This document shows positions 1 to 20,362 of a DNA stretch of 64,000 nucleotides, piece after piece. The notes under the pieces were generated by a model. It made no database searches, had not been told where the DNA came from, and worked only from the letters and a program-made list of their open reading frames with translations. The DNA comes from an uncultured virus (IMG/VR IMGVR_UViG_3300044700_000221) (taxonomy: Duplodnaviria > Heunggongvirae > Uroviricota > Caudoviricetes). The DNA is taken from IMG/VR virus record IMGVR_UViG_3300044700_000221, one strand, 5' to 3'. Within the stretch, counting starts at the first letter, position 1, and every line of letters begins with the position of its first letter. A program made the position numbers and the translations under genes.

Positions 1-1011
1 CACGCATCCCGGAGCTGCCTTGATGATCGCCCACAAGTCGCTATCACTCAGACTCATTGAGCCTGATTGATCGATGAGGACAACGCCACCGAGACCCCTG
101 GCACGACGGTCAAAGACACGTCGCTCAGGATCAGTGAGCATACGGTTGATACGTCGTGGGTCACGGCCACTGTTAGTAGCAATGCGCTTGCGACCAAGTC
201 GACCTGCTACACGTTCAGTGAGCGGAAGCTTGTCAAGCATCAATGGTGCAAACCCAGTATCGCCACCCTCGTCAGGTACTTCTTCACCACCAGGGAACTC
301 ATCTAGAGGGAACTCACCCTTATGGCGTAGTAGACCAGCTAGCTGTCGGGCAAGCCCAAGAGTGCCAGTCATATACCCAAAAGGAAGCTCAACTTCCTCC
401 TCATTGATATCTACCTCGTACGGCCTTGTACTATCGACCGAATCGGTGTAGCCCTTGTCCCAACTACGCTTGACAACTTTGATGGTCTTGCGCACATTCA
501 ATGCATGCGCAAGCATCGCTGGGTTAGCGCCGTCTTTGACAGCCTTACGGATACCAGCCATGAATGGCCTGATCGCACCAGTGCCCTCCATTGCCGCGAT
601 TGCGTAAGTCACGTCATTGAAGTTATTGGACTTGGCCACGATTTCACCCTCACGCTTCTCGGACCCATCGTAAAGATAGGACATATCGAAGCCTGCTTTG
701 TTGGCAATGTAGTTGACACGGAACTCTTCACATGTAGTGGCGAGATCCGTGTTGATGCCAAGTGATCGATGACTGTCAGGAACTACCGGACCAAGTGCAG
801 GGCTAACCTTGGCGTGCACCATTTCATGTGCACGGATTGCCCGTGATGTGTCGTCCTCGCCAAGAGGAACACGCATGCGTCGACCGTCGATATCGGTCCA
901 TGCGTTACCCCTCGTTGGGCGACCATCCTCAATTTTCCAGGGGGTTGGTTCCCCCTGGAAAATGTCCTCCCTGGACAACCACTCTGGGTATGGGGCGTGA
1001 GTTTTTGTCAT
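1..1011 (-). CDS. Metallopeptidase-like (HExxH) + VWA-domain protein, partner of the MoxR-type ATPase; partial, runs off the window start
   Basis: Not in the ORF track. Both ends translated by hand from ATG 1011 (TGATG overlap with the ATPase stop): MTKTHAPYPEWLSRED...RAIRAHEMVHAK...GGVVLIDQSGSMSLSD. HExxH and the MIDAS DxSxS motif are in the same frame. Confidence 0.8.
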   Translation of the reverse strand, partial: MTKTHAPYPEWLSREDIFQGEPTPWKIEDGRPTRGNAWTDIDGRRMRVPLGEDDTSRAIRAHEMVHAKVSPALGPVVPDSHRSLGINTDLATTCEEFRVNYIANKAGFDMSYLYDGSEKREGEIVAKSNNFNDVTYAIAAMEGTGAIRPFMAGIRKAVKDGANPAMLAHALNVRKTIKVVKRSWDKGYTDSVDSTRPYEVDINEEEVELPFGYMTGTLGLARQLAGLLRHKGEFPLDEFPGGEEVPDEGGDTGFAPLMLDKLPLTERVAGRLGRKRIATNSGRDPRRINRMLTDPERRVFDRRARGLGGVVLIDQSGSMSLSDSDLWAIIKAAPGCV

Positions 1012-1775
1012 CACTCTCCAATGTTGTTGACACGAATGGTGTCCACGATGGACATCCATGAATTGGGGAACAGCAGCTTGGCTGCTTCATTCAACGCTTC
1101 GTCAGCGTCAAGCCCAGTTGATAACAAGTGACTGCGCAACTTGTCAAACGCAGCCCACCCACGTAGTGAGGTGCGTCGCTCACCCTCAAGGTCTGCTGAC
1201 AAAGCAGCAGGCACACGCAGATCTTCTGACAAGAATGTCAGAGCATCTGGGTGGGGGGTGTTGATGCGCAACGCTACAGGGAAACGATCCTTGAGGGCTG
1301 TCGGCAATTCACGCATGTCCTCGATATTGGTTGTCATCACCGCACTAAAGCCTTGACGGGGCTTCATTTCAGTGCCACGTTCTGGGTGCAACCAAGTTGC
1401 ACTTGCTTCGCTGTCAAGCATGCTGAGCAATAGTGACAGTACGTCACCATTGGCACGGTCGATTTCGTCAACGACTAGACGACCGCCCTGGATGCCGTTG
1501 CCTTCCCAGGCACGGACCGCGGAACCATCGTGCCAATGCCAAGCACCACTAGCACTGGGCATGTAGTGACCAACGACGTCTGATGACGTCATTTCTTCCG
1601 TACAGATAAGACGGAAGGCACCCCCAAGGGTGTCGCCGTAGTTAAGGCCAGCAAAGGTTTTGCCGGTTCCTGGGGGCCCAAACAAGATGATCTTGTCGAG
1701 GCCAGCCTCAAGAGCGAGCTTGACGTCTTGCCAGCACTTAGGCAGTTTGTTGTTGTTGTCTGTTGCCATTTTCAT
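1011..1775 (-). CDS. MoxR/CbbQ/CobS-like AAA+ ATPase
   Basis: Walker A GPPGTGKT, Walker B LVVDEIDR, ALKDRF Arg finger. Start moved to ATG 1775 (or 1769), behind GAAAGGGG. Confidence 0.88.
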   Translation of the reverse strand: MKMATDNNNKLPKCWQDVKLALEAGLDKIILFGPPGTGKTFAGLNYGDTLGGAFRLICTEEMTSSDVVGHYMPSASGAWHWHDGSAVRAWEGNGIQGGRLVVDEIDRANGDVLSLLLSMLDSEASATWLHPERGTEMKPRQGFSAVMTTNIEDMRELPTALKDRFPVALRINTPHPDALTFLSEDLRVPAALSADLEGERRTSLRGWAAFDKLRSHLLSTGLDADEALNEAAKLLFPNSWMSIVDTIRVNNIGE

Positions 1776-1806
1776 ATCCCCTTTCAAGGGTTTGGGTGGA
1801 TAACAA

Positions 1807-1841
1807 TGGACGACGGCACGGTTGCACCGTACCGCCGTCCA
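1807..1841 (-). repeat. Leader hairpin repeat, copy 1 (TGGAC..GG...AACCGTG...CGTCCA)
   Basis: Minus strand TGGACGGCGGTACGGT-GCA-ACCGTGCCGTCGTCCA pairs fully using two G-U pairs. Related copies at 3458-3492 and 5141-5175. Confidence 0.75.
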
Positions 1842-1860
1842 GAAAGAACTACTAAGGAAT

Positions 1861-2202
1861 CTACGGTGCAGATTCCTCCAGCCCAAGGTGGGCTGGTACA
1901 TCGATGATCTGGTTTGTAAACCAGGGCCACAAGTCTGGCAACACTAATGTCAGCCAGCCTGTCAAGTCATCAAGGGATTCAAACACCTTCCCCTTGACGT
2001 CTACTTTCACACCGACAACGTCGGCGTCCGGGATGTCGGACATGTCGTGACCGTATTGCTCACGAAATGCTTCGTGAACTTGTGAAGGCAGATCTTCTAC
2101 CTTCATAAGAAGATGCTTCGCAGCAATTACTGTCCAGCCTGTCATTGGGTGAAACCCTAACTGCACCATTGGGGGTGGTACGTCTGGCATGTCATCTTCC
2201 AT
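1861..2202 (-). CDS. Hypothetical protein
   Basis: 113-aa ORF with AGGAGG RBS, same strand as neighbours. Confidence 0.75.
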   Translation of the reverse strand: MEDDMPDVPPPMVQLGFHPMTGWTVIAAKHLLMKVEDLPSQVHEAFREQYGHDMSDIPDADVVGVKVDVKGKVFESLDDLTGWLTLVLPDLWPWFTNQIIDVPAHLGLEESAP

Positions 2203-3393: not shown

Positions 3394-3457
3394 AACAATT
3401 CCCCTTTCTAGGGATTAGTTGAATTTGTTATGACACTCAGCCATTGAGCGATTTGTT

Positions 3458-3492
3458 TGGACGGTGACACGGTTGCAACGGCGACCAGTCAA
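3458..3492 (-). repeat. Leader hairpin repeat, copy 2
   Basis: Plus strand TGGACGGTGACACGGTTGCAACGGCGACCAGTCAA; imperfect stem. Confidence 0.6.
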
Positions 3493-3510
3493 ACCGCCCG
3501 AGAAAGGTAG

Positions 3511-3631
3511 TGAGGCTGAGGGGAATCGAACCCCTGCGACACTTTCGTGATCCTGCCTACTGGCTTTCGGTTAGTTAATAACCAAGCCGCGGACGCGATA
3601 CTTTAGAGTTTGTGCGCTACCATTCAGCCTC
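3511..3631 (-). ncRNA. tRNA-like RNA (perfect acceptor stem and T arm, non-tRNA core), 121 nt
   Basis: GAGGCTG/CAGCCTC-A acceptor stem and AGGGG-TTCGATT-CCCCT T arm; no canonical D or anticodon arm. Confidence 0.75.
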
Positions 3632-3636
3632 TTGGG

Positions 3637-3668
3637 TGGGTCAGGTTTTACGACATGACCCAGGTCGT
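3637..3668 (-). ncRNA. Putative H-type pseudoknot
   Basis: Stem 1 ACGAC/GTCGT; loop TGGGTCA pairs with downstream TGACCCA across an AAAACC linker. Confidence 0.5.
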
Positions 3669-3783
3669 TGAGTTAGTAATCTTCAAGGCTCACTCACACA
3701 GCCAATACGCAGGCATTACCAACCTGTCATACCTTCGCCGGCATGCTAAGCGACAGATTTACGTCATGTCAGGACGCTCTCCG

Positions 3784-3999
3784 TCAGTCGAACGGAGAGA
3801 ATCTTGGTGACTCTTCGTCACAGCGGAATATGAAATCCGCTGCGTAGAGTTTGTCAATGCTGTCGCATTGACGTATGGTCTTGATTAGACCCTTTCGGGT
3901 CTCACGCAGCAATTGCCGCTCAAACTTCCGAGCTAAGCGTTGTTCCCGCTTGTATTCACGCACCTGGCGGTACGTGGTTGCAACCGACATTGTTTCCAT
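3784..3999 (-). CDS. Hypothetical basic protein
   Basis: 71-aa ORF, GGAGGT RBS. Confidence 0.7.
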   Translation of the reverse strand: METMSVATTYRQVREYKREQRLARKFERQLLRETRKGLIKTIRQCDSIDKLYAADFIFRCDEESPRFSPFD

Positions 4000-4230: not shown

Positions 4231-4267
4231 GATTTACCTCTTCCTCCAAACCCCCACTGGGCGTGGG

Positions 4268-4340
4268 TGCTCTCGGCAGGATTCGAACCTGCGGCCTACG
4301 GTTTAGGAAACCGTCGCTCTATCCGCTGAGCCACGAGAGC
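4268..4340 (-). tRNA. tRNA-Arg(CCU)
   Basis: Cloverleaf: GCTCTCG/CGAGAGC acceptor, GCTC/GAGC D stem, ACGGT-TTCCTAA-ACCGT anticodon arm, GCAGG-TTCGAAT-CCTGC T arm. Confidence 0.95.
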
Positions 4341-11831: not shown

Positions 11832-11905
11832 GCCGGGTGGTGCGTCCGGTTGACGCAAGGTGTCTTATAAACACCCGTAGACGGGTTCAACTCCCGTACT
11901 CGGCA
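11832..11905 (+). tRNA. tRNA-Ile(UAU)
   Basis: GCCGGGT/ACTCGGC-A acceptor, TGCG/CGCA D stem, GGTGT-CTTATAA-ACACC anticodon arm, ACGGG-TTCAACT-CCCGT T arm; G at position 8 is atypical. Confidence 0.85.
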
Positions 11906-12040
11906 CTTTTGATACAATCTATAGGTGACTAAAGAGAACCACCCCACATGTGATACTTCCACGCAGTGTGTTTACTGTGGAGGACAGCTTGTACCTGAAC
12001 ACGCCCACTACAAGTGTAAAGACTGTGGGCAAAGAGACGC

Positions 12041-19513: not shown

Positions 19514-20362
19514 ATGGCTGTTAGAATTCAATTTAGACGCGGTACTGGTACTGAGTGGTATGACAACAACCCAGTTCTTGCCGTTGGCGAAATGGGTTAT
19601 GTTACTGAAAAATATCCAACTTCAGGTACTGTTCTATACCCAAAAGGTGGTATTAAGTTTGGTGATGGCACTACCGCCTGGAGATCTCTTGATTTTGCTG
19701 CAGCCGGTGACATCTTTGAAGTTAATGCTGGAAATGGCCTAACAGGTGGTGCAAACACTGGAGCTGCAACTCTAGCTATTGACACAACAAAAGTATTTAG
19801 TACATCTTCAATTACTGCTAAAGGTGACCTTTTGGTAGGTAGTGGAGCTAACACTTTTGTATCCGCAACTGTTGGAAGTAACTTTTCAGTATTGACTGCG
19901 AACTCAGCCTCTGCTGGAGGTATTGCGTGGGATAGTACTCTTACCAGAGTTTCTTTAAAATCACCGTTAGAAGCATGGAGTATTGTAAATGCAGCTCCAT
20001 CATCTACAACTGGTGGTGTGCGTAACCTAGATGTTGTTACTGCTAGCGCATGGTATACGACCATTGCTGCTACCCACACATGGACACTGAACATTAGAGG
20101 AGATGGCTCTACCTCTTTAAATAGCCTTCTTCAAACTAACCAAAGTATTACAGTTTCGTTTGCAGCAAATATGGGGGCAACCGGCTATGTGCAATCAAGT
20201 CTTACAATTGATGGCGGGAGTGCTCAAACCATTCAATGGCAAAACGCTCTAGCCCCTTCGGCAAACACAAGCGCAATTGATGTGTACACTTACACTATTG
20301 TTAAAACAGCTGACGCTACCTATACCGTTTTTGGTTCACGCACTAAATTTGATTCGGTGTAA
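19514..20362 (+). CDS. Minor tail protein with Mtd-N-like N-terminus
   Basis: IQFRRGT..EW..NNPVLAVGEMG...KFGDGTTAW. Confidence 0.75.
   Translation: MAVRIQFRRGTGTEWYDNNPVLAVGEMGYVTEKYPTSGTVLYPKGGIKFGDGTTAWRSLDFAAAGDIFEVNAGNGLTGGANTGAATLAIDTTKVFSTSSITAKGDLLVGSGANTFVSATVGSNFSVLTANSASAGGIAWDSTLTRVSLKSPLEAWSIVNAAPSSTTGGVRNLDVVTASAWYTTIAATHTWTLNIRGDGSTSLNSLLQTNQSITVSFAANMGATGYVQSSLTIDGGSAQTIQWQNALAPSANTSAIDVYTYTIVKTADATYTVFGSRTKFDSV

Follow-up and report, generated by a model that had tools for sequence, protein, structure and literature searches.

tRNA look-alikes that lack an anticodon appear in the records of phages T4 and T5 as RNAs without an assigned function. In the T4 record (AF158101), rnaC (species 1 RNA) is 139 nt long, with CCGGG-UUCGAAU-CCCGG as its T arm, and is encoded shortly after tRNA-Arg and rnaD. 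The T5 record (AY543070) annotates RNA1 (144 nt) and RNA2 (125 nt) as 'tRNA-like stable RNA with unknown functions', and in both the fold joins an acceptor and a T arm to a middle part that is enlarged. Our full-text literature search on phage tRNA-like stable RNAs returned nothing on those of T4 or T5. Mycobacteriophage DS6A is listed, in a passage of Hudson, Lau & Williams 2014 (PMC4131195), as carrying little beyond the tRNA-like domain of tmRNA; another passage of that article, citing Mao et al. 2009, states that a similar domain-only molecule is a strong inhibitor of tmRNA regardless of whether it can be charged, and that titration of SmpB may be the cause. We located the DS6A element at JN698994 28478-28560, where it spans 83 nt, scores 43.2 bits against the Rfam tmRNA model (RF00023), has G3·U70 and starts with GGGGCCG-CAAUGGUGG. 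Followed to its end (JN698994 28478-28563; 1501-1586 of our locus L175), the DS6A element closes with ACUA, not ACCA. According to passages of a review (PMC3968760), alanyl-tRNA synthetase recognizes its substrates by G3·U70 together with A73, and every ssrA sequence keeps G3·U70. YrlA, a bacterial Y RNA-like RNA, likewise bears a tRNA-like module that includes a T arm (see PMC4201824). A passage of the Lak megaphage paper reports that Lak tRNAs contain introns.

Here we analyzed a stretch of 64,000 nucleotides, referred to throughout as the window, which is part of an uncultured freshwater tailed phage with a contractile tail (myophage) and encodes terminase, portal, capsid, sheath, tube, baseplate, DnaB, primase, PolA and RecA. 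The stretch or part of it was found in the DNA runs of 11 studies, the listed runs being mostly freshwater metagenomes by record; among the 22 listed runs with the stretch, none is an RNA run. The window contains a 121-nt element that is a real, conserved, structured and non-decoding tRNA-like RNA gene, and its identity and architecture can be regarded as established with high confidence.

Architecture and detection of the 121-nt element

The gene for this tRNA/tmRNA-like RNA lies on the minus strand and runs from G1 at position 3631 to the discriminator A at position 3511. It belongs to a block of small genes on that strand and has same-strand genes on both sides. All parts named below are given in window coordinates and read on the minus strand. 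The acceptor 5' strand GAGGCUG (3625..3631) forms seven Watson-Crick pairs with the 3' strand CAGCCUC (3512..3518), in which both sequence and alignment place C at position 70. The T arm AGGGG-UUCGAUU-CCCCU (3519..3535) is invariant in all copies and is matched by the tmRNA, tRNA and mascRNA models. Between acceptor and T arm lie 89 nt, most of them a conserved structured insert of approximately 80-90 nt that stands where a tRNA has its anticodon arm. The acceptor is followed at once by (U)A-AUGGUA, without the 5' strand of a D stem, and AAUGGUAG stands directly 3' of the acceptor 5' strand. The GG of the linker AAUGGUA (3618..3624) matches the D-loop GG of tRNA and tmRNA, and the tmRNA model treats the linker as a stem-less D-loop. 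In the fold termed A below, the insert is closed by a basal helix whose 5' strand GCG-C-ACA (3611..3617) is the counterpart of tmRNA helix 2a and whose 3' strand UGU-CGC (3536..3541) lies immediately 5' of the T arm. Within the insert, we observed a variable stretch (3601..3610) with the lowest conservation of both length and sequence, a long interrupted hairpin (3555..3594; GUC/GGC, GGCUU/AAGCC and GGUUA/UAACC with the apical loop UUAAC), and a CAC-GAAA-GUG hairpin with a GNRA-type loop (3540..3549), which competes with the ACA/UGU part of the basal helix. There is no 5-pair anticodon stem with a 7-nt loop, the sole long arm having 12-13 pairs and a 5-nt loop. The discriminator A and the trailer CUA (3508..3511) form an ACUA that is kept in all three lineages with a full sequence, and conservation ends right after it.

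A preliminary description, made from the letters of the window, had listed the acceptor, the T arm, the A followed by CUA, AAUGGUAG, GGCUU/AAGCC, GGUUA/UAACC and CAC-GAAA-GUG, all of which are present on the minus strand. Its outer hairpin pair UCC/GGA is unsupported by the relatives and gives way to GUC with GGC (GUC/GAC in the relatives), which fits all sequences. The remark that CCA is not encoded is accurate for the element, which ends in A-CUA, but does not set it apart, the tRNA-Arg and tRNA-Ile of the phage and the tRNA-Arg of a relative likewise being without CCA.

The element exceeds what chance would yield. We scanned the 64-kb window for acceptor/T-arm halves, each of which had to combine a T stem of five Watson-Crick pairs and a UUCRANN loop with an acceptor of seven Watson-Crick pairs lying 40-260 nt upstream. 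The scan gave two matches, the true tRNA-Arg and the element at 3511..3631; applied to 100 simulated sequences of equal dinucleotide frequencies, it gave a mean of 0.01, with a match in one of the 100. The predicted fold of the element, at -41.9 kcal/mol, is more stable than that of its shuffles, at -32.85 +/- 3.39 (z -2.67), of which 1 in 200 was as good.

ARAGORN reported no credible tRNA or tmRNA at the element, either by default or with introns allowed, in tmRNA mode or at lowered thresholds. An intron-containing tRNA was considered and rejected: with introns allowed ARAGORN was silent at its default, and at an 80% threshold it produced a spurious 'tRNA-His' with another acceptor and a 127-nt intron. 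At gathering score, Rfam returned nothing at the element and called tRNA-Arg alone in the window.

Below the curated cut-offs, which are 47 bits for tmRNA (RF00023) and 29 bits for tRNA (RF00005), the best match of the tRNA clan was tmRNA, with 26.7 bits for the window (E 3.2e-08), 32.2 for the homologous locus L001 and 28.8 for the homologous locus L002. The RF00023 E-values of these three copies, from 3e-08 to 3e-10, indicate a real likeness, confined to the ends. Given little flank, cmscan matched the T arm or the 3' part only; given 3 kb, the tmRNA model aligned both ends (model 1-374) over window 3508-3631. This window alignment consists of the acceptor, the GG loop and the T arm alone, and tRNA-Ala has two of these three parts. 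The tRNA model gave 24.5 and 24.1 bits for the L001 and L002 copies. Since the RF00023 and RF00005 scores are under the cut-offs, the element belongs to neither family; the ends of tmRNA come nearest to it among catalogued RNAs. A 121-nt RNA has no room for pseudoknots, and none are present. We also rejected a tag-peptide reading of the tmRNA kind, because the frames are not conserved: in the only one from GCA to UAA, L001 and L002 differ by a 7-nt indel, and this frame passes through the stretch with the lowest conservation. Among the three roles that the preliminary description had proposed, a reduced tmRNA-like molecule fits best, given the RF00023 ends, but with all scores below 47 bits. 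Its likeness to Y RNA or YrlA found no Rfam match even at E up to 10, and the ends of the RNA build an acceptor, not a Ro-binding stem.

Two canonical tRNA genes were found in the window. tRNA-Arg(CCU) on the minus strand (4268..4340; ARAGORN call at 4266-4340), also called by Rfam, lies 636 nt upstream of the element; tRNA-Ile(UAU), at 11832-11906 on the plus strand, was called by ARAGORN and is absent from the Rfam list at gathering score. Neither encodes CCA. The anticodon UAU of the phage tRNA-Ile is an uncommon bacterial way to read AUA. A complete related phage genome contained no SmpB and no CCA-adding enzyme, and in a search with Phage_integrase, limited to tyrosine integrases, it gave no match. 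Because CCA is not encoded and the complete relative has no CCA-adding enzyme, host enzymes must finish the 3' ends of the phage tRNAs.

Directly upstream of the RNA region, a minus-strand ORF (3784..3999) encodes an arginine/lysine-rich product of 71 aa, and the 152 nt between it and the element (3632-3783) are untranslated. This ORF is 82% identical to L002 3107-3322, which is also upstream of the RNA cassette, and it belongs to no Pfam or PHROG family. Its product could be an RNA-binding partner; as a constant companion of the RNA the ORF was rejected, being present in the window and in L002-type contigs and absent from the L001 locus. Downstream of the element, a 123-aa ORF has no relatives in IMG/VR, and the downstream genes are unrelated between the window and L002. 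An AAA_5 ATPase (1011-1901, minus strand) matching a PHROG annotated 'porphyrin biosynthesis' is followed by a large ORF (1-1059, minus strand) of PHROG 33218, and this conserved pair led us to the related phages. Elsewhere in the window, an ORF at 19514-20362 on the plus strand has the N-terminal domain of a major tropism determinant (Mtd_N), a hint of a diversity-generating retroelement target among the tail fibre genes.

Conservation and competing folds

The search for homologues, which the preliminary description had put forward together with a covariance model, found the element in close phage relatives. Homologues are limited to three further lineages, namely two in IMG/VR and one variant contig of the public run X8. 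Among 35 IMG/VR loci reached through the neighboring AAA ATPase, three carry a homologue: L001 (3512-3625) and the near-identical L002 (3749-3868) and L003. Our covariance model, R1, gave 123.6 bits for the window, 128.6 for L001 and 146.7 for L002, and found no other homologue in 450,310 bases from 35 sources; run over the whole contigs of five related phages, it matched the contig of L002 only. Catalogued phages in INPHARED gave no match to the element by blastn or to 12 kb by megablast. Exact patterns of 20 and 25 bases had no matches in IMG/VR, and a pattern scan there returned four loci, all from known lineages. In metagenomes, the pattern scan returned two loci, the L001 contig and a chance match within a coding gene, and a gapped pattern in IMG/VR returned six. 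Four of these six were known already; of the other two, which are unrelated, one is a Ser-type tRNA and one is a tRNA with a further T loop behind it. The element is 80-84% identical at the nucleotide level among relatives, and both of its flanks are unalignable.

Changes between the copies fall in loops or leave the base pairing intact. In the alignment of the window, L001 and L002 (A3), 98.9% of the cells are paired and four pairs are changed on both sides, a result reached by 7 of 500 shuffles and by none of the slid controls. At one of the four (columns 41-77) the window row is probably misaligned, so that the count is three or four double changes, and the covariation rests on few events because it comes from only four sequence variants of one narrow phage clade. 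At acceptor pair 2-71 the window has A-U where L001 and L002 have G-C, both sides having changed, and at pair 5-68 it has C-G where L001 and L002 have U·G. The middle pair of the basal helix, C-G in the window, is A-U in L001, L002 and the X8 contig, again with both sides changed; in the X8 contig, the G to U change at 3537 comes together with the partner change at 3616, and in L001 the tmRNA model pairs the same basal-helix strands. In the inner hairpin, GUUG/CAAU of L001 stands against GUUA/UAAC of L002 with one pair double-changed, and the window hairpin has gained an extra G-C pair through an inserted G on the 5' side and a U to C change on the 3' side. The X8 variant has 13 listed substitutions and three indels within the element, all in loops or preserving pairs; several of the substitutions and an insertion fall in the variable stretch, which also holds the 7-nt length difference between L001 and L002. 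No change is listed in the CAC-GAAA-GUG hairpin of the X8 contig, and as this hairpin is invariant in the three aligned sequences, covariation neither supports nor refutes it. The U·G and G·U pairs exist on the minus-strand reading only, indicating that the minus strand is the one transcribed.

The core of the RNA has two competing folds. In fold A, the basal helix GxG-C-ACA/UGU-CxC adjoins the T arm, as it does in the tRNA-like domain of tmRNA. Fold B, a five-way cloverleaf resembling that of class II tRNAs, combines the long arm with a D-like stem (U/C)GGUA/UA(U/C)CG, formed in the window by 3618-3622 and 3596-3600, and with a further arm GGAxCAC-GAAA-GUGUCx (GGA-CAC-GAAA-GUG-UCG in the window); its D-like stem (UGGUA/UAUCG) is possible in all three sequences, with one-sided changes only. 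Under constraint, fold A is calculated to be better by 3.3 kcal/mol in the window and fold B by 3.2-3.6 kcal/mol in L001 and L002. A pseudoknot might also accommodate both.

The relatives carry further RNA features around the element. In L001 (3244-3337) and L002 (3359-3454), a second tRNA-like RNA, which no detector called, lies upstream of the homologue. Its acceptor is GGAGGGG or GGGGGGA with UCCCUCC, its T arm is AGAGG-UUCGAUU-CCUCU, and its body is unlike that of a tRNA. In L002 this second RNA has G3·U70 and A73 followed by CC; in L001 it has A3-U70. R1 scores these L001 and L002 copies at 22 bits, and there is no copy in the window. Between the two tRNA-like RNAs lies a strongly structured spacer (L001 3338-3511, L002 3455-3748; -99 kcal/mol and z -2.3 in L002), to which the 152-nt spacer of the window bears only a faint likeness. 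A 53-nt block just downstream of the element (window 3456-3507, minus strand) is 79% identical to L002 3009-3061, where it lies upstream of the 71-aa ORF, i.e. at the opposite end of the cassette; since TTGACT and a palindrome rich in GC lie within this block, it may be a promoter or terminator.

Alanine-type ends and candidate functions

The 21-mer running from the T stem into the acceptor 3' strand occurs in at least 120 bacterial loci; among those listed, ARAGORN called 90 tRNA-Ala and 15 tmRNA and left 15 uncalled, these being cut loci or 3' fragments. In 120 of the 120 bacterial loci among the matches listed, the 21-mer is followed by UCCA, i.e. by U70. The pair G3-C70, which the preliminary description had pointed out for the window, recurs in L001 and L002 and so holds for each of the three full sequences, none of which has G3·U70; C70 in the phage copies means that the G3·U70 mark of alanine has been lost. 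The 5' part of L001, GGGGUUGUA...UGGUAGAGCAC, is similar to the starts of tRNA-Ala and tmRNA alike. The element is built on an alanine-type acceptor/T-arm minihelix, a type common to tRNA-Ala and tmRNA. Among the bacterial loci, five (L043, L053, L070, L110 and L123) hold tRNA-Ala 3' halves without a 5' half, as found beside integrated elements, which shows this tRNA-Ala end to be a frequent integration site.

Tentatively, the best overall explanation is that the element is a non-decoding RNA of alanine/tmRNA type acting as a stable, uncharged mimic of the acceptor/T half. Host RNase P would cut its 5' end, and 3' tRNA-processing enzymes and the CCA-adding enzyme would mature its 3' end by the same route as the phage tRNAs. 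Alanyl-tRNA synthetase would leave the RNA uncharged, and the stable product would then occupy a protein that reads the acceptor/T half of tRNA or tmRNA. The base pair that lets alanyl-tRNA synthetase charge such ends is replaced in every copy, which makes an uncharged tmRNA-end decoy a testable idea. The preliminary description had also suggested a decoy for anticodon nucleases; the element offers them no 7-nt anticodon loop, its apical loop being 5 nt.

The leading candidate target is SmpB, whose occupation would damp host trans-translation. This step, proposed by analogy, is a leading guess that we consider rather doubtful. It draws on the architecture, on the loss of the identity pair and on the remark published alongside DS6A (in a passage of PMC4131195), which supports a decoy by stating that molecules with nothing but the tRNA-like domain inhibit trans-translation, chargeable or not. 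The tmRNA consensus bases around helix 2a are lost, so SmpB binding is not implied by sequence. An SmpB decoy is further weakened by the two competing folds and by the conserved insert of about 80 nt, which a pure SmpB decoy leaves unexplained. A fuller version, which we think unlikely, is that this phage clade makes an uncharged mimic of the tmRNA domain from which G3·U70 was removed so that it is never charged and never productively enters the ribosome; the mimic would sequester SmpB, or else a different protein that reads the end of tmRNA (RNase R, for instance), and would shut off host ribosome rescue and tagging during infection, with the insert as a second binding surface. If true, this would be an RNA-only anti-host device aimed at trans-translation; should the decoy idea prove wrong, the element remains a clear case, taken from nature, of a tRNA scaffold that carries a structured RNA.

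The alternative that survives best, though we rate it as somewhat less probable than a stable uncharged mimic, is a cargo RNA of the kind of T4 rnaC or T5 RNA1 and RNA2, in which the acceptor/T half is a handle for maturation and stability and the insert acts on a protein or RNA unrelated to trans-translation. The comparable tRNA-like plan of T5 RNA1 and RNA2 and of T4 rnaC is consistent with this, as is an insert whose conservation equals that of the ends and whose helices are maintained by compensating changes; L001 and L002, moreover, carry a second, different tRNA-like RNA nearby. The cargo reading, however, has no nameable target or partner and no homology to rnaC to draw on (9.9 bits with R1), and it leaves unaccounted for an alanine/tmRNA-type minihelix from which the identity pair has been removed.

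Still less probable is a processing signal only, in which cuts by RNase P and 3' tRNA nucleases would define where the upstream transcript ends and where the downstream mRNA begins, and the RNA released between them would have no role. The location between same-strand genes, directly after an untranslated stretch of about 150 nt, would suit such a signal, and in L001 and L002 the element is the 3' bracket of a structured spacer of 174-294 nt whose 5' bracket is another tRNA-like RNA. A minihelix would suffice for processing, yet the insert is 80-84% conserved with compensating changes next to unalignable flanks, and the genes downstream in the window and in L002 are unrelated.

It is improbable that the element is what remains, in decay and without present function, of a tRNA-Ala or tmRNA end once captured, e.g. 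as an old attachment site. Loss of G3·U70 and of the D-stem strand does resemble pseudogene damage, and several of the 15 uncalled pieces among the at least 120 loci with the 21-mer are tRNA-Ala 3' fragments as left at integration sites. Against decay, both acceptor strands are kept and co-vary, all 16 of the listed X8 differences in the element spare the pairing, and conservation stops sharply at the element borders; the complete relative genome, for its part, gave no match in the search limited to tyrosine integrases.

Charging by a synthetase that ignores the anticodon, with the amino acid donated in or outside translation, is the least probable alternative: leucine identity in tRNA depends mainly on A73 and tertiary elements, and leucyl-tRNA synthetase would find the discriminator A, the five-way junction of fold B with its long extra arm and an apical loop UUAAY in all copies, but the 5-nt apical loop on a 12-13-pair arm is too long for decoding geometry and the D-like loop of fold B has no GG to meet the T loop.

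Comparison with known tRNA-like RNAs

Collectively, these findings set the element beside several described RNAs, from which it differs to varying degrees. In YrlA, the ends of the RNA form the Ro-binding stem and the acceptor is closed, whereas the ends of the window RNA form the acceptor. Shared with tRNA-Ala are the 5' start GGGGYUGUA, the GGUAGAGC motif of D-loop and D-stem, and the whole T arm with the first four bases of the acceptor 3' strand, which are identical to those of many bacterial tRNA-Ala genes. The window RNA differs from tRNA-Ala in being without the D-stem 5' strand and the anticodon arm, in C70, in its length of 121 nt and in the silence of ARAGORN.

The stable RNAs of T4 and T5 share with the window RNA their size class (119-144 nt), nearby tRNA genes on the same strand, an acceptor-like pairing of the ends, a T arm and an enlarged non-tRNA middle. 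By contrast, the acceptor of T4 rnaC has two U·U mismatches as annotated, and the score of 9.9 bits that R1 gives on rnaC shows no homology; T5 RNA1 keeps a D arm like that of leucine tRNA, whereas the window RNA has the alanine-type minihelix. We rejected T4 rnaD as an analogue, as it is without a T arm.

The tRNA-like domain of tmRNA and the DS6A element share more with the window RNA: an acceptor made from the two ends, a canonical T arm, the discriminator A and, if fold A holds for the window RNA, a short GG-containing loop after the acceptor without a 5' stem strand of its own and a helix that closes the interior and adjoins the T arm. The Rfam tmRNA consensus GAC...GGAC flanking helix 2a, however, is not kept in the element (GAGCACA...UGUCUC). 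Like the window RNA, the DS6A element is phage-borne, is without an mRNA-like part, has a similar 5' start and ends in ACUA, which is conserved in all copies of the window element. The two differ in that the window RNA has G3-C70 where DS6A keeps G3·U70, in the insert (approximately 80 nt and conserved in the window RNA, approximately 20-35 nt in DS6A), and in the RF00023 score, which is 43.2 bits for DS6A and 26.7-32.2 bits for the window RNA and its relatives, with the cut-off at 47. Taken as a phage-borne domain of which RF00023 aligns both ends, the DS6A type includes the window RNA. The preliminary description had called the element a new tRNA-like ncRNA; it is real, conserved and non-decoding, but its kind was already known from the T4 and T5 records and the published DS6A element. 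In kind, the element resembles the known tRNA-like stable RNAs of phages (T4 rnaC, T5 RNA1 and RNA2) and the domain-only gene of DS6A.
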